Shown here: positions 7,122-62,000 of the stretch, piece by piece
How positions within the stretch are numbered: position 1 is the stretch's first letter
Layout: every line of letters begins with the position of its first letter
From: a bacterium
GTDB lineage: Bacteria; Hydrothermota; Tepidihabitantia; Tepidihabitantales; Tepidihabitantaceae
NCBI GenBank assembly: GCA_046485285.1
Contig: JAWOHE010000089.1
Location: 43,432-107,431 of the forward strand
Reading direction: 5' to 3'
Length of the DNA stretch: 64,000 nucleotides
Notes under the pieces: model-generated
The model's input: only the letters and a program-made list of their open reading frames with translations
Told to the model about the DNA's origin: nothing
Database searches by the model: none
Position numbers and translations under genes: made by a program

Positions 7122-8354
7122 CTAGTTGCCGGTGTCGGCGCAGTCCTGGCCGGAGAAGCGGGCCTGGTAGGCTTCCCAGGCCTCGCGGCGGATGCGCTCC
7201 ATCTCGCAGATGGCGTGCCAGGACTCGTCCTGGCGGCCGAGGAAGAGCAGGGCGTCGGCGAGGGTGACGTAGGCCTGCTGGGCGTTGGGGTCGAGCCGGA
7301 TTGCCCGTCGGCTGGAGCTGATTGCGAGGCGGAGGTGGCCGCGGCGGAGGTGGAGGTCGCCGAGCATCGCGATTGCCCCGGCATCCTCGGGCACGAGCCG
7401 GGTGAGCCGGCGCGCGGTGCGGGCGGCGTCGTCGAGCCGGCCGGCCTCGCAGTAGGCCCGGCTGAGCCGGGCGAGGACGTCGGGGTCGTCCGGTTCCTCG
7501 CGAGCGAGCCGCTCGAGGGCGGCGATGGCCTCCGGTCGCATGTTGAAGTGTTCGTAGAAGCCGCTGGTCAGCTCCGGGGAGTCGCCGAAGCGCTGGGCGA
7601 TTTCGCCGTAGAGGTCGATGGCGTCGTCGGAGCGGTTGAGGCGGCGCAGGCAGTCGAGGAGGTAGAAGTGACCGGCCGGTTCGTCGGGCTCGTCGTTGAC
7701 CGCGCGGGCGAACTCGCCGGCGGCCTGCTCGATCATTCCCTCGTGGTAGTAGTCGCGGCCGAGTTTCTGGTGGGGGTTCTCGATGTCCGGCGCGACCTCG
7801 CGGGCGCGGGAGTACAGGGCGAGCGCGGAGTCGTACTCGCCGTCCATCGCGTAGAAGCCGCCGAGCGAGACGAGCGCGCGGACATTGTCGGGCTCGCGCT
7901 CGAGCGCGCGCCGGCACGCGGCGACGCCCTTGTCGCGCTCGCCGGAGTATTCGTGGACGACGCCGAGGCCGAGGATGAGCTCGAGCCGGTCGGGCAGCTC
8001 GGCGAGCGCGCCCTCGATGAGGTCCTCGGCGCGCGAGAAGTTGGCGAGGAAGAGGTAGCGGATGCCCTCGCAAGCCCGGGTCCAGGGGTTGCGGCGGTCG
8101 AGCTCGCGGGCGTGGGAGCAGAGCTGTTCGAGGGTGTCTTCCCGAGTGACGATCTGCGCGCAGAGGGCGGCGAGGTAGTGGGCGCGGAGGTCGTCGGGCG
8201 AGTACTCGAGCGCCTCGAGAAACAGCCCGAGCGCCTCGTCCTCGCGCTCGCGGTAGAACTCGGCGAGGCCGCGCTCGATGAGGCCGCTCGCGGTCGCGAT
8301 CGACGGCCGGAGCCGGGACCGGGTGCCGCGCCGGGCAGGGGCAGGAGAGTCCAT
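7122..8354 (-). CDS. Tetratricopeptide-repeat protein
   Basis: Multiple TPR helices (A..LG..Y...G....A); TTGCCA-17-TACAAT promoter at 8365-8393. The long 5' extension in the ORF track is spurious. Confidence 0.88.
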   Translation of the reverse strand: MDSPAPARRGTRSRLRPSIATASGLIERGLAEFYREREDEALGLFLEALEYSPDDLRAHYLAALCAQIVTREDTLEQLCSHARELDRRNPWTRACEGIRYLFLANFSRAEDLIEGALAELPDRLELILGLGVVHEYSGERDKGVAACRRALEREPDNVRALVSLGGFYAMDGEYDSALALYSRAREVAPDIENPHQKLGRDYYHEGMIEQAAGEFARAVNDEPDEPAGHFYLLDCLRRLNRSDDAIDLYGEIAQRFGDSPELTSGFYEHFNMRPEAIAALERLAREEPDDPDVLARLSRAYCEAGRLDDAARTARRLTRLVPEDAGAIAMLGDLHLRRGHLRLAISSSRRAIRLDPNAQQAYVTLADALLFLGRQDESWHAICEMERIRREAWEAYQARFSGQDCADTGN

Positions 8355-8407
8355 CACCGCCAATATTGTAGCCGGGCCGGGGCGGTCTGGCAACTGCCGG
8401 CGCGGGA

Positions 8408-8435
8408 TTGACAGATTTCCGGCCGGTGTTAGACT
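8408..8435 (+). promoter_or_regulatory. sigma70-type promoter for the candidate selenoprotein gene
   Basis: TTGACA-16-TAGACT, followed by the RBS AAGGGAGAG. Confidence 0.6.
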
Positions 8436-8468
8436 TGGTCGTTTGCCGACAACCAGAAGGGAGAGCCG

Positions 8469-9458
8469 ATGCCGACAATGCGCAAGGCCGCCGTCGCGGC
8501 GCTGCTGCTGCCGCTCGTCGCGGGCGCGGCGAGCATCTGTGTCTGGAACTACGACCCGCTGGACCGGTTCTTCGACCCGGCGGTCGGGGATTCGATTGAC
8601 TGCAGTTACTGGGTCGAGCGGGTGCTGTCCGAGCAGGGCCACTCGGTCGAGGTACACGACAGCTACCTGCCCGGGGACATCACGGGCTACGACCTGGTGT
8701 TCTGCCTGATGGGCTGGTACCGGTGCTGAGGGGACAACTGCACCGTCGGTTCGACGGAGCGTACCAGCCTGATAGCATTCCTTCATTCCGGCAAGGCGGT
8801 CTACGCCGAGGGTGGGGACTTCGGCTATTCGAACCGCAGCAATGAGTTCTGGCCCTACTTCGGCTGCAGTTACCTCGGCGACGGCAACGCCTCGGCCAAC
8901 GTCCAGAGCCTGACCGGCGTGGCCGGGACGTTCGCCGCGGGACTCGCCTTCGGGCATGCCTACGGCGAACCGCCCGACGCCTGGGTCGACGAGATCGGGG
9001 AGGACGGCGGCACGCTGTTCCTGCGCGACCAGTCCGGCGTCGGCCGGGCGATTCATTACTCGAACTCGAACTGGCGAACCGCGTTCTCGGCGCCGGTCTT
9101 CGGGGCGATCCGGCCGACCGACCGAACCGACCTGATGCGTGGGATCACGAACTTCCTTCTCGACGGAACCGCGGTTGGTGAGCGGCCGGGCGCGGCCGGG
9201 CCAGCCGGATTCACGGTCGCGCCGAACCCGGCGCGGCCGGGCCAGCCGGTCCGAGTGCGGGTGCCGGCCGGGACGGGCAGGGTGACGGTCCACGATGCCT
9301 CGGGCCGGACCGTTGCGACGCTCGAACCGGACCACGCCGGCGTGGCGAGTTGGAGCTGCCTCAGGCCGGACGGCCGGGCGGTGCCGGCAGGCGCGTACTT
9401 CGTGCGCGCGGCGACGGGCGGCCAGACCCTGGGCCGCACGCTGGTGCTGGCTCGGTAG
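8469..9458 (+). CDS. Secreted protein with sorting CTD and in-frame TGA at 8727-8729; candidate selenoprotein (~329 aa)
   Basis: ORFs 8469-8729 and 8919-9458 share a frame with no other stop. Signal peptide, continuous alpha/beta domain (YDLVFCLMGWYRC*GDNC..LIAFLHSGKAVYAEGGD), CTD (PNP..DASGR..GAYFVRA). Confidence 0.75.
8740..8760 (+). promoter_or_regulatory. Putative bacterial SECIS hairpin
   Basis: GC-A-CCGTCG[GTT]CGACGG-A-GC starts at +11 after the TGA; G/GU-containing apical loop ~19-20 nt downstream. Confidence 0.6.
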
Positions 9459-9465
9459 CGGGGAT

Positions 9466-9670
9466 TGTCGAACGAGCGGCCGGGAGGAGACTCCCGGCCG
9501 CCTTCGTTCAGGCGGATGAAATGAGGAACCGCGATGCGTCAGGAGGCCCAACGCACCGCGGTTCCGGTCCCCATTCAGAGTGCAGGTCGTCGGGCGGTGA
9601 GGAGCGCGACACCACCCGGTGAGAGAACCTCACTCTAGCTCGGTCAGACTCTCCTAAGCCCTATGTATGC
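9466..9670 (-). ncRNA. Putative sigma54-dependent structured sRNA (~200 nt)
   Basis: Lies downstream of the -24/-12 box. Hairpins at 9591-9618, 9525-9565 and 9476-9501; the first two have mismatches that become G.U pairs only on the minus strand. CUCCU in loops. Confidence 0.5.
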
Positions 9671-9679
9671 GCTACTGAT

Positions 9680-9697
9680 ATGCACAGAGCGTACCAA
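9680..9697 (-). promoter_or_regulatory. sigma54 -24/-12 promoter
   Basis: Minus strand TTGGTACGCTCTGTGCAT (GG-N10-GC). Confidence 0.7.
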
Positions 9698-9722
9698 AGT
9701 CTGGCGATGGTGTCGCTGCGTC

Positions 9723-9735
9723 TAAGTCATTGATA
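9723..9735 (-). promoter_or_regulatory. IHF binding site
   Basis: TATCAATGACTTA matches WATCAANNNNTTR and lies between the UAS and the sigma54 box. Confidence 0.7.
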
Positions 9736-9792
9736 ACAATGCACAACTTCAGAACTGGTAGATGTGACAGTAGACATCAGCTCGCCTGCGCC

Positions 9793-9825
9793 GCCGAAAT
9801 CTGCTGTTCGACTGCCGAAATCTGC
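9793..9825. promoter_or_regulatory. Putative activator UAS (direct repeat)
   Basis: GCCGAAATCTGC twice, 21 bp apart (two helical turns), ~125-155 bp upstream of the predicted TSS. Confidence 0.55.
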
Positions 9826-9852: not shown

Positions 9853-11439
9853 CTAGATGCCGTACTCGGCGATTCTCCGCCGCAGTGTGTCGCGGTGGAG
9901 GCTCATCATCTCGGCGGCCCTGGTGATGTTGTTTCCGGAGCGCTCGAGAGCCTCGATAATCGCGTGCTTCTCGATGGCCTTAATACTAAGGCTCCCGACG
10001 AGTCCCTCGAGGGTCTGCCGTCGCTCGGGCCGGGGTGCCCGCTGGCCGAGAAACCGCATCACACCGATGGTTGAGATGACGTGGCCGACCGAGACCGCCG
10101 CGCTGCCGTCGTACTGGGCGCGCTCCCAGGCCTGCTCGAGCAGCGCCCGGAGGGTGCGGAAATTGCCCCTGAAGACGTCATTGTCACCGCTGATGTACTC
10201 GCCGACGAGCTGGTGGACGAAGCGGGCCGCGCCCTCGTCGACCTCGATCGGCCGGGGCCGGCGGGGGCTGGCGTTGCGCTCCGCGGCGACGAAGCTGAAG
10301 AACTCGCGGACGTCGGACTCGACGACCGCGGGGGTCTCATCCTGCCAGCGGTCGATGAGCGACGGGACCGGCAGGCACTGCTGGACGACCCGGCTGTAGA
10401 AGTCGGGCCGGAAGCTGACTACGAGTTCGTCGATCGTGCGGTTGGTCGCGGCAATCACGCGCATATCGACCGGGATCTCGCTCGAACTGCCGACGCGCCG
10501 GATGCGGCGGTTCTCGATGGTCCTGAGGAGCTTGAGCTGGACCTCGGGGCTGATGTCGCCGATTTCATCGATGAACACGGTCGAGCCGTTGCCGTACTCG
10601 AAGACGCCCTCGCGGTCGCCGGTCGAGCCGGTGAACGCGCCCCGGACGTGGCCGAAAAGCTCGGACTCGATGAGGTTGCGGTCGAGCGCGGCGATGTTGA
10701 CGGCACAGGGCAGGCCGCGGACCGGGTCATCGGGAACGCAGCGCAGACTGCAGCGGTGAAGCGCGTTGGCGACGAGTTCCTTGCCGACACCCGGTTGGCC
10801 GAGTATCAGGACGACCGAGTCGGCAGGCCCGAGCCGTTCGATTTCGTGGGCGAGGAAGACCATCCGGCGCGAGCGGCCGACGACCATCCGGTGCTTCGCG
10901 CGCCACTCGGCCCTGCGCTTCTCGTCGAGCAGCCGCATCGCGAAGGCGTCGACCCGCTCGGCGAGCGGCTCGAGGTCGGCCCGGTCGGGCGGGACGCTGA
11001 CCAGATGGCAGAGGCCCTGGGCCGGGTAGAGCATGAAGTGGTGGAAGCGACGCATGCGCTCGTCGTCGGCATCGCGGGACAGGAGCAGGACCGGCACGAT
11101 CGGGTCAATCCCGGTCTCCCGCATCAGCGCGTAGATGATCAGGCCCTGGAACTCGCGGGCATTGAAGTCTCTCGGAACAGGGTAATTCAGCTCGGGGTAG
11201 CCGACGAGCTTCCGCTCATCTTCGACCCCGGTGAAGTCAACGCCGATGACGACCGCGGACACGAACCGGTCCAGGTTGCGGACGTGCCAGTCGCGCAGGG
11301 ACTCGAAGCAGTCGAGGCCGATCAGCTCGAACTCGCGGCCGAGCCGTCCGTAGTCGAACGAGGTGATGGCGCTCGAGATGGCCTCGAGCCGACTGCTAAC
11401 CCCCTCGACGACGATGACGACCGGCAGTTTGGCGTCCAT
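9853..11439 (-). CDS. sigma54-dependent transcriptional activator (AAA+, Fis-type HTH)
   Basis: GQPGVGKE Walker A, ESELFGHVRGAFTGS, FIDEIG, RVIAATNR, GNFRTL, C-terminal HTH; atypical N-terminal receiver-like domain. Confidence 0.93.
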   Translation of the reverse strand: MDAKLPVVIVVEGVSSRLEAISSAITSFDYGRLGREFELIGLDCFESLRDWHVRNLDRFVSAVVIGVDFTGVEDERKLVGYPELNYPVPRDFNAREFQGLIIYALMRETGIDPIVPVLLLSRDADDERMRRFHHFMLYPAQGLCHLVSVPPDRADLEPLAERVDAFAMRLLDEKRRAEWRAKHRMVVGRSRRMVFLAHEIERLGPADSVVLILGQPGVGKELVANALHRCSLRCVPDDPVRGLPCAVNIAALDRNLIESELFGHVRGAFTGSTGDREGVFEYGNGSTVFIDEIGDISPEVQLKLLRTIENRRIRRVGSSSEIPVDMRVIAATNRTIDELVVSFRPDFYSRVVQQCLPVPSLIDRWQDETPAVVESDVREFFSFVAAERNASPRRPRPIEVDEGAARFVHQLVGEYISGDNDVFRGNFRTLRALLEQAWERAQYDGSAAVSVGHVISTIGVMRFLGQRAPRPERRQTLEGLVGSLSIKAIEKHAIIEALERSGNNITRAAEMMSLHRDTLRRRIAEYGI

Positions 11440-11703
11440 TATCGGCGCAGGTCGCGATCAGTCCCGGCAATCATCGCGAGGGAATTATATGCCGAAACGC
11501 CTATCTGGCAAGCGCCGGGCGCCGCCGCAGAGTTGTGCGCCGGGGCGACGGACCGCCGAAACCAGCGCATCGCCGGCCGCCGCTTTCTGCTGCCAACGGC
11601 AGGTGGGCCTGTTAAGGGATTCTCCTGACGCGGGGCGATGTCCGGCTTGACTCCCGGCACAGGTCCGGCAGACTGTCTTGTGATGAGGAAAGGAGCATCC
11701 ACC

Positions 11704-12282
11704 ATGTGTCGCATTCTCATTCTTGTTCTCGTGGCCCTGGCGGCGACCGGCTCCCTGTGCGAGCGTGCGCCAGAGCGGAACTGGGAACGCGGGGATTTTC
11801 GCCCCGACCCGGGCCGGGTCTGGGACCTGCCCGGTGACGTGCGGGTCAACAGCATCATCGGCTGGGAGGACGAGATCGTCAACTCCGAGCTGCCGCTGGC
11901 GCTGGCATTCCGCAACGACGGCAATGCCCCGAGGTCGGTGACGATGCCGGCCGGGCTGTGCTTCAGGCCGCGCGACCCGGAGTATGCCTGGATGATACTG
12001 CTCCAGGATTTCACCTTCACGGTCCCGCTCGACGACACGACGGTCTTGGTCCCGACCTGGTCGGCCAATGAGGAGCGGGACGAGCCTGACGACGAGTCGC
12101 CCTACGACATCGACCTGGTGGCCCGGGACCGGGAGATGAAGGAGCTGTTCGACCTGCTCGCCGGCAAGACACTCATTGACACGATTGTCGAACTCGACGT
12201 GGTCCAGGACGCGCTCTGGGAAGTCACCGACGGCGACGGGCTGACCGACTCGACCCGCGCCTGGCTCGAGGAACTGCCCTAG
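11704..12282 (+). CDS. Lipoprotein-like protein, thioester-domain-like paralog lacking the Cys
   Basis: Signal peptide plus GSLC; aligns with the 13942 protein (PAGL.F..W/F-S/C-x-N..P..VQDALWEVTD..GLT..L..LP). Confidence 0.7.
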   Translation: MCRILILVLVALAATGSLCERAPERNWERGDFRPDPGRVWDLPGDVRVNSIIGWEDEIVNSELPLALAFRNDGNAPRSVTMPAGLCFRPRDPEYAWMILLQDFTFTVPLDDTTVLVPTWSANEERDEPDDESPYDIDLVARDREMKELFDLLAGKTLIDTIVELDVVQDALWEVTDGDGLTDSTRAWLEELP

Positions 12283-12291
12283 CGGCAGGCG

Positions 12292-13872
12292 ATGGCGGCC
12301 TGGTTCCTTCTCGCAACGCTGGCCGCGGCGCTGTCCGGCTCGGGCGACGCGCGGGGCGCGGCCGGCCCTGCGCCGGTGAAGGAGCTTGACCGCGCCGAGG
12401 CGGTCACCCGGCCGGCGGCCGGCCGGCGGGCGGACGTCGAGCCGGGGAGCGGCAGGGTGGAGTTCGCCGCCGGGACGGTCGACACCACGGCGGTGAGCGC
12501 GTTCGGGGCCGCGGCGGACGAGCGCGGGAGGATATGGCTAGCGATCGCCGGCCGGGACGCGTGGCTCCGGGTCCTGCGGTCGGAGGACCTCGGGTCGAGC
12601 TGGGAGCAGCTCTTCACCTTCCCGACCGGCACCGATGTGCCGAGGGTGGAGGTCGTGACCGGCCCGGGCGACTCCGGGTGCGTGTTCGTCTTCTACCTGA
12701 CCGTTGCCCGGGCCGGCGACCTGCGGGCGCTGCGGATCGGGCCGGGCGAGAGCCTCGAGGTGCTGGACTTCGAGGTCGCGGTCGGGCCGGACACGATAAC
12801 CGCCTTCTCGGTCGCGGCCGACCGCGACCGCCACTACTACCTCTACCTGCTCTATGCGAACGAGACTCGCGCCGGCAACAACGCCAGCTTCACCCGGTCG
12901 CTTGACTATGGCAAGAGCTGGGAGATTCCCCAGAGCTGGTGGAACTGCCTCGACCCGTGCGTTGTCTACGGCTCGGGCTCGACGGTGCACTGCGCCTGGC
13001 GCTACGCGGCCAACGGCCGGGAGATCCACGTCGAGACGAACCGCTGGCACGGCCGGCCTCGGAACTGGTGGGGGCACGCGCGGGTGAGCCGTGCGGCGCA
13101 GAGCGTCGGCGAGCCGACGGTGGCCCAGCTCGACACCTGCAACGATGCCCGCGGCGCGACCTGGGTGGCGTGGACAGTCGCGGACCGGTCCGGTCGCCGG
13201 CGCAACATCGAGTACGCCCGGAGCGACGACGGCGGCGGGGGCTGGACCTACGTCGGGCCGCCCGCCGATGAGCCGTTTCTCGACCGCTGGGCGCCGGTAC
13301 TGGCCGCCGCGCCGGGCCGGCCGTACGGCCCGGTCCAGCTCGGCTACGTCGCGGGCCGGATCGGAGCGGACACGACCGATACGATGCCGGGCAGGACCGG
13401 GCTCCGGTGGCGGACGACGACCCACGCCGACCGCGCGAGCTGGTCGGCCGCGAGCGGCGTCGGCACCGGGCCGTTCGCATCGGGCCCGGGCGTCAAGCCC
13501 CGGCTGGTCATCCCGCCCGGCGCGCCCAAGGGCTGGCCGCTCGCAGTCTACAGCCGCCGCTCGCCGACCGGGGCGCGCGGGGTGTACGCGAGCGCGCCGT
13601 GGCCGGGCGGGTCCGAGGACGGACCGGTCGCCGACCGGGGCCGCGGGAGCGCGCGGGCGGTCCTGGCCGGCCGGACGCTACGGCTCGAGCCGGTGCCGGA
13701 CGGGCCGGTGCGGATCGAGCTGTTCGACGCGTCGGGCCGGCGCGCCGGCCGCACGGCCGTCGTCGCGGGCGGCGCGGCCGAGCTCGAGTCAGACCCGCCG
13801 GCCGGGACGCTGTTCGCCCGGGTGACCGGCTGGCCAGCGACCGTGACGTTGCGGGTGTTCGTCGCCCGCTGA
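12292..13872 (+). CDS. Secreted BNR/Asp-box repeat protein with sorting CTD
   Basis: Signal peptide; SEDLGSSW, SLDYGKSW, SDDGGGGW; CTD ELFDASGRR. Confidence 0.8.
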   Translation: MAAWFLLATLAAALSGSGDARGAAGPAPVKELDRAEAVTRPAAGRRADVEPGSGRVEFAAGTVDTTAVSAFGAAADERGRIWLAIAGRDAWLRVLRSEDLGSSWEQLFTFPTGTDVPRVEVVTGPGDSGCVFVFYLTVARAGDLRALRIGPGESLEVLDFEVAVGPDTITAFSVAADRDRHYYLYLLYANETRAGNNASFTRSLDYGKSWEIPQSWWNCLDPCVVYGSGSTVHCAWRYAANGREIHVETNRWHGRPRNWWGHARVSRAAQSVGEPTVAQLDTCNDARGATWVAWTVADRSGRRRNIEYARSDDGGGGWTYVGPPADEPFLDRWAPVLAAAPGRPYGPVQLGYVAGRIGADTTDTMPGRTGLRWRTTTHADRASWSAASGVGTGPFASGPGVKPRLVIPPGAPKGWPLAVYSRRSPTGARGVYASAPWPGGSEDGPVADRGRGSARAVLAGRTLRLEPVPDGPVRIELFDASGRRAGRTAVVAGGAAELESDPPAGTLFARVTGWPATVTLRVFVAR

Positions 13873-41155: not shown

Positions 41156-42295
41156 ATGAGAAACCCGACATTCCTGCTCGCGACACTGGCCGCGCTGGCC
41201 GTTGCCCAGTCCGACTACTCCGCGCCGGGCCGGTTCGCTGCCGCGTTCCGGACCGAGGATATCCCGGGCTCGACCGAGCTGATGCAGGGCTCGCGCATCT
41301 ACTACCCGGAGTCGGCCGGGGTCATCCCGCGCCGGGCCGCGCCCGCACCGGTCGTCGTCTTCGGCCACGGCTGGCAGATGGGCATCGACCGCTACTACAG
41401 CTACGCCGAGCACCTCGCGACCTGGGGCTACATCGCGGTCCTGCCGACCATATCCAACCCGATCATCCGGCCCGAGCACGACCGCCGCGCCCGGCTGATG
41501 GCCGACGCGGCACGATTCGCGGCCGCGCTGGACACCGTGACCGGCGACCCGTTCGCGGGCCGCGTCGCCCGCGCGAACTGGGGCTTCTGCGGGCACTCGA
41601 TGGGCGGCGGCCTGGCGATGCTCGCCGCGGACACGCTCCGGCTCGGCGACAGCCTGCGGGCGGTCGCGGCGCTGGCAAGTCCGCAGACCGACCCGCCGAC
41701 CAATGCCGCCAACGTCCGGGTGCCGAAGCTCGTCATCGGCGGCGGGACCGACAACACCGCGCCCTGGCCGGCGGTCCGCGAGGCCTACTGGCAGGGCGCG
41801 CCCGCGCCCGGCACGTTCGGCGTGGTCCGCGGGGCAAACCACGGTTACTTCATGGACTACTCCTACTTCTGGGAGAATGGCGGCACCGCCGGCATCACCC
41901 GCGAGGAGCAGTTGCGGAGCGCCCGGCGCTGGCTCACCGCGATCTTCGAGCGGTACCTGCACGGCGACGAGGGTAACTGGAACACCGCTTGGCTCTACGG
42001 CGACTCACTGCGGTCGAGCCCGGCGTTCGAGTCGGTCGAGGTGCGGCTGACGGTAGCGGTGCGCGACCGTGCGGCGCGACTCCAGCCCCGGCTGTCGGTC
42101 CGGCCCAACCCGTTCAGCAACTGGGCGCTCCTGTCGGGCTACGAGTCTAGCGACGTGCTGGTCTACGACGCGGGCGGGAGCCTTGTCGGCGTGCTCAGCG
42201 GGCCGGCGGTCGGCGGCGATCTCGGGCCCGGAGTCTACTTCCTGCGCAGCGCCGACGGTGACGGCCGGCCGGTCCGGGTCGTCAAGGCGCGCTAG
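41156..42295 (+). CDS. Secreted cutinase/chlorophyllase-like alpha/beta hydrolase with sorting CTD
   Basis: PVVVFGHG, LATWGY, GHSMGGG, GGTD, GANH; CTD PNPF..GVYF. Confidence 0.85.
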   Translation: MRNPTFLLATLAALAVAQSDYSAPGRFAAAFRTEDIPGSTELMQGSRIYYPESAGVIPRRAAPAPVVVFGHGWQMGIDRYYSYAEHLATWGYIAVLPTISNPIIRPEHDRRARLMADAARFAAALDTVTGDPFAGRVARANWGFCGHSMGGGLAMLAADTLRLGDSLRAVAALASPQTDPPTNAANVRVPKLVIGGGTDNTAPWPAVREAYWQGAPAPGTFGVVRGANHGYFMDYSYFWENGGTAGITREEQLRSARRWLTAIFERYLHGDEGNWNTAWLYGDSLRSSPAFESVEVRLTVAVRDRAARLQPRLSVRPNPFSNWALLSGYESSDVLVYDAGGSLVGVLSGPAVGGDLGPGVYFLRSADGDGRPVRVVKAR

Positions 42296-42306
42296 CCGGC
42301 CCGGCA

Positions 42307-45075
42307 GTGGGCACGACCCGCACGCCGGCACTCTTGGCCGCCTTCCTTGTTCTCACCGCCGCCGCGGTTGCATCCCCGGCGCGGCTGGTTGCGGTGCCGG
42401 CATCGGACGCGGGGCTGATCGAACGGCTGGCAGCGGAAGGCGCGCGGAGTTGGGGCGCGACCGATTCCTGGCACTACCTCGACCCGGCCTCGATCGCCGG
42501 CCCGGTGCCGGGCGCGCGCGAGGTCCTGCTCGACCCCGACCGGCCGGCGTTCTTCGCCTGGGCCGGGCTCGATGCCGGGCCGGAGCTGGTCCAGCCCGGC
42601 GAGGCCGAGGCCCGGCGCTACCGGCGGCTGGTCTCCCTGCCCGACGCGCCGGTGCCGCTCAGGATGCCGCGGGCGCCGGTCCTGTCCCGGCCGGCGGCCA
42701 GCGACAGCTTCGTCCAGCGGCTGGTCGCGCGGGTGAGCCCGGACTCGATCCGGGCCCGGATTACCGAGCTCTGCGGGTTCCAGACTCGCCACTCACCGAC
42801 CGACAGCTGCCGCAGTGCCGAGCGCCACGTCTTCGAGTACTTCACCCGGCTCGGGCTGGACTCGGTCGAGCTCGACTCCTACCCGCGCGGCGGCGAGTAC
42901 TGGCGCAACCCGGTCGGCATCAGGCTCGGCCGGTACCGGCCGGACAAGGAGCTCATCGTCTGCGGCCACATGGACGCGATCTCGGAGATCCCGGATAGCC
43001 TCGCGCCCGGAGCCGAGGACAACGCGTCCGGGACCGCGATCGCGCTCGAGGCGGCGCGGGTGCTCGCGGCCGAGAATCTCGACCTGACGGTCAAGTTCGT
43101 CGCCTTCACCGGCGAGGAGCTCGGGCTCTACGGCAGCGCGCACTACGCCCAACGGATGCGGGCGGCCGGCACCGACATCCTCGGCGCGCTGAACTTCGAC
43201 ATGGTCGCCTGGCCGGGCGGTAGCTGGGGCGTCGCGCTGGTCGGGCTCGCGCCGGCGCGCAGGCTGTGCGACTACCAGGCCGCGATGGCCGACCGCTACA
43301 CCGAGCTCGATCACCGCATCTCGGTGCGGAGCTTCCCGTCCGACTCGCGTTCGTTCGAGGAGGCCGGCTATGTCGCGACCTCGGGCTACGAGTTCGGCTC
43401 CGAGCCCTACATCTGGTACCACACCTCGGCCGACACGCTCGGTAACCTCGACTTCGACCTCGCCGCGGAAGTCTGCCGGATGGCGGTCGCGACGCTTGCC
43501 TCGCTCGCGGTCGCGCCGCTGCCGCCCGAGGGGTTCGCGCTCGCCGACTGCGGCGACGGGACTAGCCTGCGGGCGAGCTGGCGGGCCTCGCCCGAGCCGG
43601 ACCTCGCCGGCTACCGGCTGTTCTGGGGGTTCGACACGCTGACCTACGCCGATTCGCTCGACACCGGGCCGGATACCGTCGCGGTCATCACCGGGCTCGA
43701 GACCGGCCGGCGCGTGTTCGCGACCGTGCTCGCGCGGGACCGGGACGGCTACGAGAGCGGCTTCGCGGACGGGGCCAGCGCGGTGCCGGCAGACGTGCCG
43801 GCCGCGCCCTCGAGCGCGGCGGCGCTGCCATTCCGGCACGGGATGAGCGTCACCTGGCGGGCGAACCGCGAGCTCGACCTCGCCGGCTACAACCTCTACC
43901 GCTCGACCCGGCCCGACAGCGGCTATGCCCGGGTCAACCCCGCGCTGCTGCCCGACACCGCCCGGCGCGACTCCGGCCTGCTCGCCGACACGATGTACCA
44001 CTGGGTCGTCACCGCGGTCGACACCGGGGGCAATGAGAGCGAGCGCTCGACCCCGGCCCGGGGCAAGGCGGTAACGCTCGACCACGGCATCCTGCTCGTC
44101 AACGAGACCCGGCCCGGCTCGGGCCAGCCCGGCAGCCCGTCCCGGGCCCAGCTCGACGCGTTCTGGCACGCGGTCCTGCGCGGCTACCGGCTTACCGACT
44201 GGAACTGCGCCGAGGCCGGCGCGCCGGGCGCGGGCGACCTCGGGCCGTACTCGACCATCGTCTGGCACGGGGACGAGTACCAGCAGATGCTCATCGCCGG
44301 CGCGGTGCCGGGCCTCGCCAACCACCTCGCCCACGGCGGCCGGCTCTGGCTTTCGGGCTGGAAGACCGCGCTCGCGCTGGCTGGCGGCGGCGGATACCCG
44401 TTCAACTACGAGCCGGGCCGGTTCGAGCGGGACCGGCTCGGCCTCGCCCGGGCCGAGCAGTCCGCCCGCAGTGACTTCATCGGCGCTGTCGGGCAGGCCG
44501 GGTACCCGGACGTTGCGGTCGACTCGGCCAAGGCCCTGCCCGCCCTGCAGGGCCGCCTGCCCTACATCGACGCGCTCCTGCCCGGCGACGGGGTGCCGGT
44601 GCTGGCGTTCCGGTCATTCTCGGGCGACAGCTTCGAATGCAAGCCGGTCGCGGTCCGCCACGAGGCCGGTGCGCACCGGGCGGTGGCCTGCGGGTTCCCG
44701 GTCTACTACCTGCGTGACGAGGACGCGAGGGCGCTGGCGCGCCGGGTGCTCGAGGACCTGGGCGAGCCGTACGGCATCGCCGAGGCGGGGCGCGCGGCCG
44801 CGACCGGCGGGCTCGCGGTCCTGCCCAGCCCGGCCCGGGGCGGGCTGGCCGTGCGCTTCCAGCTCGCCGCGGCCGCACCGGCGCGGCTGGCGGTGTACGA
44901 CGCGGGCGGCCGGCTGGTGCGGGTGCTGGCGACCGGCGAGCACCGGGCCGGCGAGCATCTCACGCGCTGGGACGGTCGCGACGCGGCGGGGCGGAAGGTG
45001 TCGGCCGGGGTGTTCTTCTGCCGGCTCGAGGTCGGCGGCGCGGCGTCGGCGCGCCGGTTCGAGCTCCTGCGCTGA
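42307..45075 (+). CDS. M28 peptidase with FN3 domains and FlgD-like CTD
   Basis: GHMDA, GAEDNASG, GEELGL, NFDM, SD..SF, YHT; two FN3 repeats (DLAGY); WDGRD. Confidence 0.9.
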   Translation: MGTTRTPALLAAFLVLTAAAVASPARLVAVPASDAGLIERLAAEGARSWGATDSWHYLDPASIAGPVPGAREVLLDPDRPAFFAWAGLDAGPELVQPGEAEARRYRRLVSLPDAPVPLRMPRAPVLSRPAASDSFVQRLVARVSPDSIRARITELCGFQTRHSPTDSCRSAERHVFEYFTRLGLDSVELDSYPRGGEYWRNPVGIRLGRYRPDKELIVCGHMDAISEIPDSLAPGAEDNASGTAIALEAARVLAAENLDLTVKFVAFTGEELGLYGSAHYAQRMRAAGTDILGALNFDMVAWPGGSWGVALVGLAPARRLCDYQAAMADRYTELDHRISVRSFPSDSRSFEEAGYVATSGYEFGSEPYIWYHTSADTLGNLDFDLAAEVCRMAVATLASLAVAPLPPEGFALADCGDGTSLRASWRASPEPDLAGYRLFWGFDTLTYADSLDTGPDTVAVITGLETGRRVFATVLARDRDGYESGFADGASAVPADVPAAPSSAAALPFRHGMSVTWRANRELDLAGYNLYRSTRPDSGYARVNPALLPDTARRDSGLLADTMYHWVVTAVDTGGNESERSTPARGKAVTLDHGILLVNETRPGSGQPGSPSRAQLDAFWHAVLRGYRLTDWNCAEAGAPGAGDLGPYSTIVWHGDEYQQMLIAGAVPGLANHLAHGGRLWLSGWKTALALAGGGGYPFNYEPGRFERDRLGLARAEQSARSDFIGAVGQAGYPDVAVDSAKALPALQGRLPYIDALLPGDGVPVLAFRSFSGDSFECKPVAVRHEAGAHRAVACGFPVYYLRDEDARALARRVLEDLGEPYGIAEAGRAAATGGLAVLPSPARGGLAVRFQLAAAAPARLAVYDAGGRLVRVLATGEHRAGEHLTRWDGRDAAGRKVSAGVFFCRLEVGGAASARRFELLR

Positions 45076-57336: not shown

Positions 57337-59082
57337 TTACTGGTCTTCTAGGATGCGGAACTCGGTGCGGCGGTTCTTCGCCATTCCCGCGGCGGTCGAG
57401 TTGTCGGCGATGGGCTGGGTGTCGGCGTAGCCGACCGCGGTGAGCCGCGCCGGCTCGATGGCGAACTTCTCGACGAGGTAGCGGCGGACCGCCTCGGCCC
57501 GGGCCTGGGACAGCTTCCAGTTGGACGGGAACTCGCGGGTGTTGATTTCGCGCGGGTCGGTGTGGCCGGCGAGCTCGACCCGGAGGCCGGGCGTGCGGGC
57601 GAGGATCGTGCCGGCCGAGTCGAGGACGGCGGTGAACTCGGGCCGGATGTCGGCCTTGCCGGTCTCGAAGTTGACGCCTTCGAGGACGATGGTCTGGCGC
57701 TTGCGGACGAGGTAGAAGTCGGCCGGGACGGTCGAGTCGGGCTCGACCCGGATGGCCGCGGCCTGGGGGACGTAGTCCTCGGACGGGCCGGAGATGCCGA
57801 GCCGGTACTCGCCGACGAGGAGGCGGCGGATGCGGAAGCGGCCGTCGGCCGCGCCGACGCGCTGGTCGCCGGCGGCCGGGCCGCGGTAGACGATGGTGCC
57901 GCCGATGGGTTCCTTCGTCCCGGCGTCGTAGATGCCGCCGGCGATGTCGCCGTAGCGCAGGGGCTGGAGCAGGAGCTCGGCGCGGGTCTCGCGGCCGGCG
58001 ACGATCGCGAAGCTGTCGGACGCGGGCAGGTAGCCGCTCGCGGTCGCGCGGACGACGAGCCGGCCGGGCGCTAGCCGGTCGCGGCGGAGGGCGTCGGCGG
58101 TGAGGGTCGTGTCGAGCGGGCCGGATAGCGCGAGCCCGGCCCGGACCGGCAGGCGGGTGCGGGCGTCGAGGACCGCGAGCGCGATGCCGCCGTCGGCGGG
58201 CGGGGCGGGCTTCTCGAGTGCGAGGTTGAGCCCGACCCGGTGGACGAGGCCGAGCTCGCCGTAGGGCGCGAGCGCGTAGTCGAAGCCGAAGCCGCGGACG
58301 CTGACGCCGAGCCCGGCGGTGAGCCCGGCGAGCGGGCCGAGGCCGGTCAGGCTGGCCGGGCCGGTGCGGTAGCCGGCGCGGAGCGCGAGTTCGGGGAGCG
58401 GCGCGTATTCGAGGCCGGCCCGGACCGCGGGCGGGTTGTCGAAGGGCACGACGAGGTCGAGGACCGCGGTCAGGCCGTGGCCGCGCCAGCTCGCGCCGGC
58501 GGCGACCTCGCCGGGCAGGGGCTCGGCGCGGCCGTAGCTCAAGAGGCCGAGGTGGCGGGCGGAGAGCCCGACCGAGAGGTCGGGCCGGAGCGCGGCGAGC
58601 GCGCCGAGGTCGAGCGCGGCCCCGGAGCCGGCGGCCTCGAAGAGGTCGGAGTAGATGCCCTTGAGCGCGGCGCCGGCGGCGAGCCGCTCGCCGAGCGCGA
58701 GGCCATAGCCGAGGCTGACCGCGCCGTGCCAGGTGCGGAAGACCTCGCCGGGCCGGTTCGCTTCGTCCCAGTACTCGATGCCGGGCTCGCCCGAGTAGAC
58801 GAGCGCGGCGCCGACCCGGCCCGGACCGACGGGCAGGGCGCCGTGGAGGACTTCGTCGGTGATGCCGGCGAACCACTGGTGGTGGCTGAGCCCGAGGCGG
58901 TAGTCGCCGCCGAGCGCGAGGCCGGCCGGGTTCCAGTAGATTGCGCTCGCGTCGTCGGCGAGGCCGGTGAACGCCTCGCCGAGCGCGGCGGCACGCGGGC
59001 CCTGGCCGATCTTGAGGAGCGGGAGCGTCGCGGTGCCGGTCGGGTCCGCGGCGAGGAGGCAGAGGGCGAGCGCGATGGTCAC
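57337..59082 (-). CDS. PorV/PorQ-family barrel fused to Ig-like and OmpA C-terminal domains
   Basis: LKIGQGPRAAALGEAFTGLADDASAIYWNPAGL, DYA..PYGELG.VHR; VNFETGKA, GHTD, NWKLSQARA, NRRTEF. Confidence 0.87.
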   Translation of the reverse strand: MTIALALCLLAADPTGTATLPLLKIGQGPRAAALGEAFTGLADDASAIYWNPAGLALGGDYRLGLSHHQWFAGITDEVLHGALPVGPGRVGAALVYSGEPGIEYWDEANRPGEVFRTWHGAVSLGYGLALGERLAAGAALKGIYSDLFEAAGSGAALDLGALAALRPDLSVGLSARHLGLLSYGRAEPLPGEVAAGASWRGHGLTAVLDLVVPFDNPPAVRAGLEYAPLPELALRAGYRTGPASLTGLGPLAGLTAGLGVSVRGFGFDYALAPYGELGLVHRVGLNLALEKPAPPADGGIALAVLDARTRLPVRAGLALSGPLDTTLTADALRRDRLAPGRLVVRATASGYLPASDSFAIVAGRETRAELLLQPLRYGDIAGGIYDAGTKEPIGGTIVYRGPAAGDQRVGAADGRFRIRRLLVGEYRLGISGPSEDYVPQAAAIRVEPDSTVPADFYLVRKRQTIVLEGVNFETGKADIRPEFTAVLDSAGTILARTPGLRVELAGHTDPREINTREFPSNWKLSQARAEAVRRYLVEKFAIEPARLTAVGYADTQPIADNSTAAGMAKNRRTEFRILEDQ

Positions 59083-62000
59083 GGCTGGTCCCTGATGACG
59101 ACGAGCTTCTTGACGAGCGCAGTGGTGCCGCCCGGGCCGGTGAAGGTGAAGACCCAGGTGTAGGTGCCGGAGCCGACCGGGCGGCCGGCGTCGTTCTTCG
59201 CGTCCCAGTCGGCGGTGCGGACGCCGGCGGCGAACGGCCGTTCGTCGAGCAGGCGGCGGACGAGCTCGCCGGCGCGGGTGTAGATGCGCAGGCTGACGGT
59301 GCCATCGTCGGGCAGGCCGAAGATGAACCGGGTGGTCGAGCGGAGCGGGTTCGGGAAGTTGTGGACCGCGAGCTCGGGCAGGAGCAGGACCCGGAGCCGG
59401 GCGGTGTCGGCGAGCGCCTCGGCGCCGGCGCAGCGGCCGGCGACCGGGAAGAGGACCGGCAGGGAGTCGGTGATGCCGGCAAGGTCCGGGCCGGGCGTGG
59501 TGACGCGGAGGTTGAATTCGTAGTCGACGTAGGGCTGGAGCAGGCCGAGGGTGTCGCCGAGCGGGCGCGCGCCGGTGACGTCGAGCAGTTCCGCGGTCCA
59601 GCCGGCGGGCGCGGGCACCGGCGCGATGAGGACGGTGAGGGCGGTGTCGGAGGTGAGCCGGGCGCGGAAACGCCAGGTGCCGGACGCGCCGACACCGAGC
59701 CGGCCGCTGGTGTCCGGGTCGACCTCGAGCCGGTAGGGCTGGAGGACGTCGACCCAGGCGAGCGCGCTGTCGTTGTCCGGCCGCTCGTCGATCGCGAGCG
59801 CGGTCGAGCAGACGACCGCGTGCCGGCCGGCGACCGCGACCCAGTCCGGGAAGGCGAGCTCGCGGGTCGCGCCGGGCGCGAGCTCCTCGTTGATGACCTG
59901 GACCCGGTCGTAGCCGGCGCCGATGCGGAACCGGACGTCGAAGTAGCGCTCGGGCCGGTTGCCGAAGTTGCGGATGACCGCGCGTGGGGTGACCGTGTCG
60001 CGGGCGGCGAGCGCGCCGGCCGGGCCGAGGATGACGGTCGCGCCGACGTCGCGGACCGGGTAGGGCAGGACCTCGAGCGCGGCGCGGCAGGTGTCGTTGG
60101 CGCGGTCGCCGTCGCGGTCGAGCGCGGTCCAGGCGACGAGCGCGAGCGGGCCGACCGGCCCGGCGGTCCAGGCCGGGAAGTCGAGGGTGTCGGCCGCGCC
60201 GACTTCGAGGGTGTCGAACCGGGTCGCCAAGTAGCCGCCGGCGATGTCGAGGGTGGTCGGGAAGCCGGAGCGGTACGGCCCGAAGTTGCGGACGACGACC
60301 CGGGGCGTGATGACCGCGCCCGAGTCCGGCGTGCCGAGCGGGGCGAGTATCGCGGTCGCGCCGACGTCGGGCGGCGGCGGCCGCGTGCCCTCGAACCCGG
60401 CCGTGATGGTGTCGTTGGTGCGATCGTCGTCGACGGCGAGACTCGTGAAGGCGACCAGTGGTATCGTGCCGACCCGGTCAACGGTCCAGGCCGGGAAGGC
60501 GACGGTGTCGACCTGGCCAATGGCGAGCGATTCGGCGACGGTTTCGTCGTAGTCGCCGTCGATGCGGAGGGTGACCGGGAAGGAGGCCGCGAACGGCCCG
60601 AAGTTCGTCACCTCGACGAGCGGGGTGATGACCGAGCCGGAGTCGGCCGCGCCGGCGGGCGCGACGATGCGGGTCGGGCCGACGTCCGGGCCGGGCGGCC
60701 GGGTGACGATGAAGTCGGCCGCGAGGGTGTCGTTGCCGCGGTCGCCGTCTTCCTCGAGCGAGGTGAAGGCGAGGAGCGCGACGGTGTCGACGCGGTCGGC
60801 GGTCCAGTCCGGGAAGGCGACGGTGTCGACCTGGCCGATGGCGAGCGATTCGGCGACGGTCTCGGCGTAGTCGCCGCCGATGCGGAGCGTGACCGGGAAG
60901 GCGACCGCGAACGGGCCGAAGTTCGTCACCTCGACGAGCGGGGTGATGACCGAGCCGGAGTCGGCCGCGCCGGCGGGCGCGACGATGCGGGTCGGGCCGA
61001 CGTCGGGCCGGGGCGGGGCCGGCACCCGGACGGTGTCGGCGACGGTGTCGTTGGCCCGGTTCTCGTCGATGTCGAGGGCGGTGAAGCAGAGCGTCGCGAA
61101 CGCGCCGACCTCGAGCGCGGTCCAGTCCGGGAAGACGACTGTCGTGTCGGCGCCGGCCGGCAGGTTGACCGCGAGGCTCTCGGCGTAGCCGGGCGCGATG
61201 CGGAAGTGGACCGGGAAGGATTCGTCGCGGTTGCCGAAGTTGCGGACGAGCGCGGCGGGTGCGTGGACCGAGCCGGAGTCGACCGTGCCGACCGGCGCGA
61301 GGATGGCGAACGCGCCGACGTCGCGGACCGGCCAGGCCTCGTGCTCGATGCGGACCTCGTCGAGCCGGGGCAGGACACAGGGGTTCTCGTAGCTGAAGGC
61401 GCCGCGGTACTGGAGGAAGCGCGAGTCGAGCGTGTCCGGTATCGTGTCGCCGTTGGCGAGCGGGAGCCAGCCGGACCAGGTCGAGTCCGGGTCCGGGGTG
61501 TCGCCGGTCCGGAGCGCGAACGCGAAGCCGGTGCCGGCCGGGGTCGAGTCGTCCCAGCCCGCCCGGAGCCAGACCTGGCGCGCGCCGGCGTCGAAGACCG
61601 CCGAGAGGTAGTCCTCGCGGAAGCGGCGGTCGTAGCGGTTGCCGATTTCGGCGGCGGTGCCGTGGTGGCTCTTGACGCTGGGCAGGGTGTCGCGCGCGGT
61701 CCAGCCCGGGCCCCAGAGGACGATGCTCGGCTCGTCCGGGTTGTAGCTGTCGATGTAGACGTCGAGGGCGCCATCGCGGTTGAGGTCGGCGACGAGTCCG
61801 CCCGAGGCGTTGAAGGCGCTGTCGCCGACGGACTGGCGGCGGCTGTCGCTGAACCGGGGCAGGCTGTCCGGGCCGTTGAAGTAGACGACCGGCAGGAGCC
61901 AGGTGTCGCGGCTGTAGTTGCCGCTGAAGAAGAGAATGTCGAGCAGCGAGTCGCCGTTCCAGTCGACCGCGGCCGAGCCGCCGTAGCAGAGCCCGGGGTT

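Follow-up and report, generated by a model that had tools for sequence, protein, structure and literature searches.

The locus and its reading frame

The window examined here, a stretch of 64,000 nucleotides (nt) from a bacterium of candidate division WOR-3, carries at positions 8469-9458 what would be one gene for an exported selenoprotein, a protein in which an in-frame UGA is read as selenocysteine (Sec, U). Under genetic code table 11 two open reading frames are listed there, one of 86 residues (8469-8729) and one of 179 residues (8919-9458). Both lie in the same frame, as an earlier note on this DNA had pointed out: 329 codons run from an ATG at 8469 to a TAG at 9456-9458, and the sole in-frame stop is the TGA at 8727-8729. 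Reading through it yields a product of 329 residues with the motif ..FCLMGWYRC-U-GDNCTVG.. across the site. The reading favored here, at a probability of about 0.9, is that these codons form a single gene for a 329-residue exported selenoprotein belonging to a WOR-3 family. This is also what the earlier note had suggested, and it is supported by a conserved TGA, by homologs with cysteine (Cys) at the site, by a downstream hairpin and by the Sec genes of the host. The features of the locus are collected in Table 1.

Table 1. Features of the candidate selenoprotein gene, in window coordinates
Feature	Position	Strand	Remarks
Sigma-70-like promoter	8408..8435	+	TTGACA, 16 nt, TAGACT, with TG before the second hexamer; consensus match only
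Ribosome-binding site, AGGGAG-type	8458..8465	+	AGGGAGAG; ends 5 nt ahead of the ATG
Probable single coding sequence	8469..9458	+	329 codons and TAG, UGA 8727 read as Sec
Predicted signal peptide, residues 1-21	8469..8531	+	R5, K6, hydrophobic core, Ala-rich AGAAS with would-be cleavage site; read from sequence
Predicted GATase1-like (class I glutamine-amidotransferase-like) domain, residues 22-237	8532..9179	+	Structure model; uninterrupted across the TGA
Cys86-Sec87-Gly-Asp-Asn-Cys91 motif	8724..8741	+	Loop between strand 76-80 and helix 95-106
Probable Sec-encoding UGA	8727..8729	+	Conservation across homologs
Hairpin of bacterial Sec insertion sequence (bSECIS) type	8740..8760	+	6-bp upper stem 8743-8748/8752-8757, GUU loop 8749-8751, two outer pairs
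Predicted beta-sandwich C-terminal domain of type IX secretion system (T9SS) sorting type, residues 242-329	9192..9455	+	Structure and profile matches
GC-rich hairpin, probable transcription-unit end	9466..9514	+	Begins 8 nt past the stop codon

The layout of these features bears on the simplest alternative, namely that the TGA is a true stop and that the locus is a pseudogene, the product of an assembly or sequencing error, or two small genes. Only the 5' end has a promoter-like site, ribosome-binding site and signal peptide, and only the 3' end the C-terminal domain and a strong hairpin. Between the TGA and GTG 8919 there is neither a start codon nor a ribosome-binding site for a second gene, and GTG 8919 itself falls within the predicted fold. 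The second part lacks a signal peptide and the first a sorting domain, in line with what the earlier note had described. The standard gene-caller annotation is on the side of a true stop, as are most of the close matches in protein databases, which are taken up below.

Conservation of the TGA, the Sec machinery and the hairpin

A six-frame search of 41 related genomes recovered 13 full-length matches at 37-57% identity, each of them (13/13) with exactly one TGA. Among the 12 aligned orthologs the TGA occupies one invariant column (12/12), flanked by the invariant residues G82, W83, R85, G88 and D89. In a phylum sample of 272 genomes, searched at E <= 1e-25, 47 matches were found in 39 genomes; all 46 that cover the site (31-57% identity) have exactly one TGA, and the 47th spans residues 98-321 only, that is, past the TGA site. 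Sixteen of 16 further forms (30-43% identity) place the U within G[WF]x[RSND][CT]-U-[GS]D. In metagenomes, a pattern open at the codon's third base (TGN) hit 31 loci; 30 of them read TGA, and the remaining one reads TGC in an unrelated Cys-rich context. A separate pattern scan of genome contigs gave 13 loci, a low yield because one of its two patterns (Cys for Sec) is unable to match TGA. The earlier note had asked whether homologs pair the TGA with TGA or with Cys; they pair it with TGA in every site-covering match, a conservation far beyond chance. Sequencing error, which would have undone the proposal, can be dismissed, as the TGA recurs in independent assemblies; a look for sequencing runs that could give read or RNA support turned up none.

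Conservation also continues past the codon. Pairwise identity averages 58% over residues 22-86 and 55% over residues 88-237, and this equality on either side of the TGA argues that selection acts on the read-through frame; one predicted fold spans the site. With the same TGA in 46 of 46 site-covering matches of independent assemblies and in 30 metagenome contigs, a true stop becomes a most improbable explanation. So far the family is found in candidate division WOR-3 bacteria. A second, paralogous subfamily that also contains Sec was seen at four loci (L092, L101, L102 and L103, in genomes G155, G164, G158 and G181). Its motif is GWER[CT]-U-GD (GWLRC-U-GD in L103), it matches residues 21-232 only, and its C-terminal part is different. 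Several genomes, for instance G155, G179 and G183, carry both Sec-containing forms.

The host genome (2.34 Mb, 88% complete) encodes all four components for Sec insertion, the presence of which the earlier note had left to be checked. A tRNA-Sec scores 73 bits and is called SeC with anticodon TCA by ARAGORN, and selA (538 bits), selB (357 bits) and selD (335 bits) all lie over their curated cut-offs. The selA and selB matches are free of internal stops. That of selD contains a single in-frame TGA in its N-terminal region (..SCAG-U-A..), which we take to be where SelD selenoproteins carry Sec; given this TGA, the host selenophosphate synthetase is itself predicted to be a selenoprotein. At G000:C37:9674-12542 of the host genome (locus L015), selB (10662-12542) adjoins selD on the same strand. 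Of the 41 related genomes, 39 have a selA match over the cut-off, among them all 12 with the ortholog. TGA is nonetheless the commonest stop of the host, ending 1548 of its 2590 stop-to-stop frames of at least 300 residues. The organism uses selenocysteine, and TGA is otherwise an ordinary stop.

These data speak to a further alternative, in which the UGA is recoded without the Sec system, by near-cognate Trp, Cys or Arg or by a reassignment in the lineage, so that a full-length protein would be made without selenium. One database protein, P0002 (330 residues), is recorded with Trp at the site, as this alternative would have it. Against it stand the role of TGA as commonest terminator, the complete Sec machinery and a hairpin with a G-first apical loop that is kept through 12 different stem sequences. 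Moreover, in relatives that lack the TGA the aligned residue is Cys six times, and a conserved Trp or Arg in no case. The earlier note had regarded Trp, Arg or Gly at this position as evidence against Sec; no conserved Trp or Arg was seen, and the one Trp, that of P0002, probably reflects translation with code 4. Recoding of this kind is very unlikely.

The Cys forms emerged from database searches. A word-based search of 5.8 billion proteins gave 13 relatives, of which 12 are C-terminal fragments of 208-231 residues. A profile search of 1.84 billion representatives returned 5619 proteins at E <= 1e-3, 97 of them at E <= 1e-30, and the best 150 of the 5619 were aligned together with the 13 word-search relatives (163 proteins). 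Seventy-nine of the 163 begin within 40 residues after the Sec column and three end exactly at ..GW[YF]RC, the pattern expected from the earlier note's claim that gene callers split the gene. Fifty-seven span the site, and six of these, all more distant homologs, have Cys at the Sec column (P0025, P0029, P0034, P0040, P0051 and P0091), at E-values from 7.6e-57 to 7.5e-33; four have GWCxxC, one CxC and one a single Cys. The alignment thereby supplies the classical Sec/Cys pair. The family appears to be almost Sec-only, with no Cys ortholog among its close relatives.

Downstream of the UGA, the hairpin reported in the earlier note, CCGTCG-GTT-CGACGG, is present at 8743-8757, its loop beginning 19 nt after the UGA. 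The outer pairs are likewise present, G-C at +11:+31 and C-G at +12:+30, with an A.A mismatch at +13:+29. According to the legend of Fig. 2 in a 2026 review (PMC13188914), the consensus bSECIS has a loop of 3-9 nt, a stem of 4-16 bp, a G in the first two loop positions, a spacing of 16-37 nt and a minimum free energy of at most -7.5 kcal/mol. The window hairpin conforms to these rules with its GUU loop, 6-bp stem, spacing of 19 nt and -13.7 kcal/mol, as do 42 of the 51 unique Sec-form sequences. Spacing within the family is 18-23 nt, and the apical loops of the conforming sequences (GUA, GUU, GUC, GGC, GGA, CGGGU and UGGAU) all show a G among the first two nucleotides. No Rfam match was found in 8650-8850 at E <= 10, which is to be expected because many putative bSECIS elements share no resemblance with one another (PMC13188914).

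Conservation of the hairpin, a second point left to be checked, is seen as conservation of a structure through changing sequence. There are 12 distinct upper stems, falling into two main types, CCGUCG/CGACGG and (U/C)(U/C)GCUC(C/A)/(G/U)GAGC(A/G)(A/G), which are offset from one another by 4 nt and encode different peptides, TVG[SPT]TE and [VI]A[PQS]xE[QR], respectively. Compensatory changes occur within each type, for example CCGUCG/CGACGG to CAGUCG/CGACUG and UUGCUCC/GGAGCAA to CUUGUUCC/GGAACAAG. The codons of the stem are near-frozen at synonymous sites, AT-rich relatives included (GTC 10/10, GGT 10/10, ACG 9/10), whereas four-fold codons elsewhere typically show 1.3-2 bits of entropy. Overall, the comparative support is strong, and UGA 8727 in all probability encodes Sec.

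Predicted fold, sorting domain and surroundings

A structure model built from 127 aligned sequences reached a pLDDT of 91.9 and a pTM of 0.76; it superseded an earlier model from a 12-sequence alignment, which had a pLDDT of 69.6 and gave unclear matches. The signal-peptide layout is the same in every ortholog, and model confidence is low in that region (pLDDT block means of 60 and 62). The N-terminal domain is predicted to adopt the GATase1 fold, matching many GATase1 and GATase1-like chains at Z 12-18, and not a thioredoxin fold, which bears out the earlier view that the fold is unlike those of the familiar Sec families. For residues 19-237 the best matches are domains of the non-catalytic, GATase1-like kind: STM3548 (2gk3, Z 17.9), a Planctomyces protein (3rht, Z 17.3), the middle domains of GH42 beta-galactosidases (Z about 16), ThuA-like proteins (1t0b, Z 15.4, and 4jqs) and the N-terminal domain of IFT52 (Z 14.6). 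Foldseek agrees and adds OST48; the domain common to IFT52 and OST48 is presumably the one named 'GIFT'. These matches span Z 14.6-17.9 and have root-mean-square deviations (rmsd) of 2.9-3.5 over 178-198 residues, with a sequence identity of only 8-16%.

Catalytic class I glutamine amidotransferases share the fold as well, at Z 12-14. The window protein differs from them in that the elbow Cys is absent and that at E <= 1 Pfam yields no GATase family. The usual nucleophile elbow, after strand 110-114, reads E-G-G-D (G115-G116-D117) and is without Cys or Sec. In GATase1 folds generally, the classical active-site cleft is flanked by the loop that follows strand 3. Within the motif around the UGA, U87, G88 and D89 do not vary among the orthologs (12 of 12); 11 of 12 have C86, 11 of 12 have C91, and none of the 12 lacks both. 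No Pfam or NCBIfam (release 20.0) family covers the N-terminal domain, the only models matched being those of the C-terminal sorting region, and sequence searches of solved structures likewise gave relatives of the C-terminal domain only.

According to the earlier note, the stretch across the TGA resembles an uninterrupted domain in an M28 peptidase of the window. This 937-residue protein (42262-45075, + strand) is secreted, with an fn3 domain and a C-terminal domain of FlgD_ig type. In a comparison with a 391-residue stretch of it, hhalign pairs positions 213-391, its last ~180 residues, with residues 163-329 of the selenoprotein candidate (probability 97.7). The resemblance thus concerns the C-terminus, and the stretch across the TGA does not align. 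The M28 protein may carry a related but Sec-less domain ahead of its sorting domain.

The read-through product ends, as the earlier note had it, in a predicted domain of the sorting type. As to fold, the sandwich matches the C-terminal domain of PorZ (Z 12.5, rmsd 2.4, 86 residues aligned, 28% identity), and Foldseek matches it with the C-terminal domains of RgpB, PorU and mirolase. Profile-level matches of residues 242-329 include the PorU C-terminal domain and the T9SS sorting domains solved in 8glj and 8glk. As to scores, curated cut-offs are missed by the window protein, for which a PF18962 match was not listed; at E <= 0.01, its orthologs match TIGR04183 in 8 of 12 cases and PF18962 in 5 of 12. 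The candidate therefore resembles T9SS type A cargo (PorZ, PorU, RgpB, mirolase) in its C-terminal beta-sandwich and departs from it in these scores and in its host phylum, WOR-3 and not Bacteroidota.

PorV-family proteins are present in the host genome, with six matches over the cut-off. One of them (124 bits) lies in the window itself at 58222-59369 on the minus strand (G000:C101:101653-102800), directly beside a hit of the PorU sortase profile's C-terminal part, and a clearer pair of PorU-like and PorV genes is found at G000:C96:13894-18054. About 43 frames of the host genome match the C-terminal sorting domain of the window protein at E <= 1e-3, which would mean that a large share of the secreted proteins of this small genome use the same sorting tag. 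One such match, at G000:C89:18544-18795, falls in a 334-residue open frame with one in-frame TAG; a pseudogene, an error or another cause may account for it.

The surroundings of the gene are simple. Both flanking genes, for a tetratricopeptide repeat (TPR) protein (7125-8381) and a sigma-54 activator (9856-11439), lie on the opposite strand, so that the selenoprotein gene would be monocistronic. The promoter matches the consensus at 10 of 12 positions, and two such sites occur in 8200-9800 against 0.1 expected from shuffles. A GGAG/GGAGG-type site precedes the first-chosen start in 10 of 12 orthologs; in the remaining two (L025 and L026) a ribosome-binding site can be made out by eye ahead of a start codon slightly further downstream. 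The hairpin past the stop codon folds at -37.7 kcal/mol (z -4.86), a stability that none of 200 shuffles equals; it has no T-rich tail and is absent from the list of the terminator scan. Across 12 loci the shared surroundings are the two halves of the gene only, with the TPR neighbor recurring in three. Paralogs of the N-terminal domain were found in the host genome neither by tblastn (E <= 1) nor with a 12-sequence profile (E <= 10).

Proposed function and relation to known selenoproteins

Several results weigh against an exported selenoprotein as described here. In the minimum-energy fold, 9 of the 51 Sec forms miss the bSECIS rules, and in the window, with its GC content of 69%, 256 of 1220 TGA triplets (21%) conform to the same loose rules; a stricter, post hoc form (at least 6 contiguous pairs and a G[GU]N triloop) is matched by 8 of 1220. 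The hairpin shows no excess stability over shuffles (z -0.55 and -0.60 in the host genome), and within the family's own genes it reaches only the top 1-55% of windows by energy. The hairpin alone is weak evidence, and its positional conservation and changed stem sequences are relied on instead. Among homologs, 51 of the 57 that span the site have neither Cys nor Sec there but another residue or a gap, typically within a GVYPNNY-type loop in large multidomain secreted proteins with subtilase, malectin or immunoglobulin-like domains; the Sec site is accordingly confined to one subfamily. P0002, with W at the Sec site, is the close family's sole full-length entry in the databases. Its Trp probably arose when TGA was translated as Trp (code 4): all DNA that was inspected has TGA here, which suggests that a pipeline applied a TGA=Trp code to the 1.8-kb contig of P0002. 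Concerning export, the C-terminal domain scores below the curated cut-offs for FlgD_ig (25.2 vs 27) and TIGR04183 (16.9 vs 23). Two PorU-like frames, one of them adjoining a PorV gene, reach 298+62 and 258+96 bits and stay below the cut-off of 420. SprA was not found in the 88%-complete genome, though control genomes were silent in the same search. Finally, where the elbow lies, and how Sec87 is placed with respect to the classical GATase pocket, is read from the order of secondary-structure elements and not from a residue-level superposition, and no redox partner gene (reductase or thioredoxin-like) is conserved next to the gene in the 12 loci.

With these points taken into account, the favored reading of the locus as an exported selenoprotein implies the following mechanism. 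The hairpin at 8740-8760, with its G-first triloop 19 nt past the UGA, would recruit SelB with Sec-tRNA(Sec), and UGA 8727 would be decoded as Sec in place of ending the chain. The signal peptide would carry the chain across the inner membrane (Sec-pathway export), as its sequence suggests, and the C-terminal beta-sandwich appears to be of the type recognized in PorU/PorV-dependent T9SS sorting. Given a sandwich of this type, the protein is probably secreted or attached to the cell surface. Sec87 would lie at the sheet's C-terminal edge, in the loop that follows strand 3, beside Cys86 and four residues ahead of Cys91. It would most likely act as a redox nucleophile, cycling via a selenenylsulfide with Cys86 or Cys91, and the Cys-type relatives would run the same cycle with their GWCxxC pair. 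That the protein functions as a surface redox enzyme is an attractive but tentative proposal, for which we would not quite offer even odds. More doubtful still is the specific picture of a non-catalytic GATase1-like scaffold that has gained a new Sec active site after strand 3 together with T9SS-type surface display.

The main functional rival accepts a real selenoprotein and takes the Cys-Sec and Sec-x3-Cys elements as a surface binding site for soft metals or metalloids, such as Hg, Cu, As or S/Se species. Table 1 of the 2026 review indeed has selenoproteins that handle metals or organometals and contain a vicinal CU, namely SaoL, HgcA, MbdU and a CopZ-family form (PMC13188914). The CxxC of the Cys relatives is a classical metal-binding motif too, and the nearest folds (STM3548, ThuA-like, the GH42 domain, IFT52, OST48) are mostly non-catalytic; the want of a conserved reductase or thioredoxin-like partner in the 12 loci would also suit metal binding. 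On the other hand, within the window the gene has no metal-transport or metal-resistance neighbors, being flanked by the TPR protein and the sigma-54 activator, and section 7 of the review holds that most uncharacterized selenoproteins are probably redox proteins (PMC13188914). Taken together, a metal site is rather unlikely, if worth keeping in mind.

Among known selenoproteins, the thiol/selenol oxidoreductases with UxxC or CxxU (Trx-, Grx-, Prx- and DsbA-like; PMC13188914, Table 1) are alike in having Sec beside a potential resolving Cys, in having Cys homologs with CxxC whose second Cys falls at the Sec column, and in a bSECIS-type hairpin inside the coding sequence. The window protein differs in its predicted GATase1-like fold, in its combined C-U and U-x3-C motif and in matching no Pfam or NCBIfam redox family. 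The CU-motif selenoproteins of the same review (SaoL, SaoC, HgcA, MbdU, KCU-star and the Csac_0668 family) share the vicinal Cys-Sec and the truncation of database entries at the CU site (PMC13188914). None of their NCBIfam models matches the window protein, which has a signal peptide, a sorting domain and a different fold. Closest in fold type is a PyrG-related amidotransferase selenoprotein, in which Sec also sits on a class I amidotransferase-type fold (PMC13188914). By our reading its GxUxG motif puts Sec at the nucleophile elbow, in contrast to the position after strand 3 proposed here, and NF004836 does not match the window protein. None of the non-catalytic GATase1-like proteins is a selenoprotein in the table of the review (PMC13188914).

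None of the 119 families and subfamilies in that Table 1 fits the window protein, the nearest being the CU-motif families and the PyrG-related form (PMC13188914), and no NCBIfam selenoprotein model (release 20.0) matches it. A literature search found nothing linking selenoproteins with WOR-3 or with T9SS cargo, and nothing relevant on secreted bacterial selenoproteins. The gene appears to represent an undescribed bacterial selenoprotein family, although the supplement of deep-Sep (PMC12013277) or the entries of BSepDB (PMC13326102) might already list it. New selenoprotein families turn up regularly; what is unusual here is the combination of a GATase1-like fold, a sorting domain, near-obligate Sec and an uncultured phylum.

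The gene family is mis-annotated in public databases as two hypothetical fragments, with at least 82 of 163 related proteins truncated at or after the TGA. It would add a well-supported family to the roughly 119 prokaryotic selenoprotein families of the review, on a fold that so far has Sec only at another site (PMC13188914). The Sec loop and its CxxC-type relatives form a natural experiment on why Sec and not Cys is kept. Here Sec resides on a probable cell-surface protein, and extracellular selenium chemistry in bacteria of anoxic sediments and hydrothermal settings is little explored. If the reading is true, this would be the first T9SS-sorted selenoprotein, as far as the literature searched shows, and uncultured WOR-3 bacteria would possess an extracellular selenoenzyme acting on peroxides, on polysulfides or sulfur, or on metalloids.

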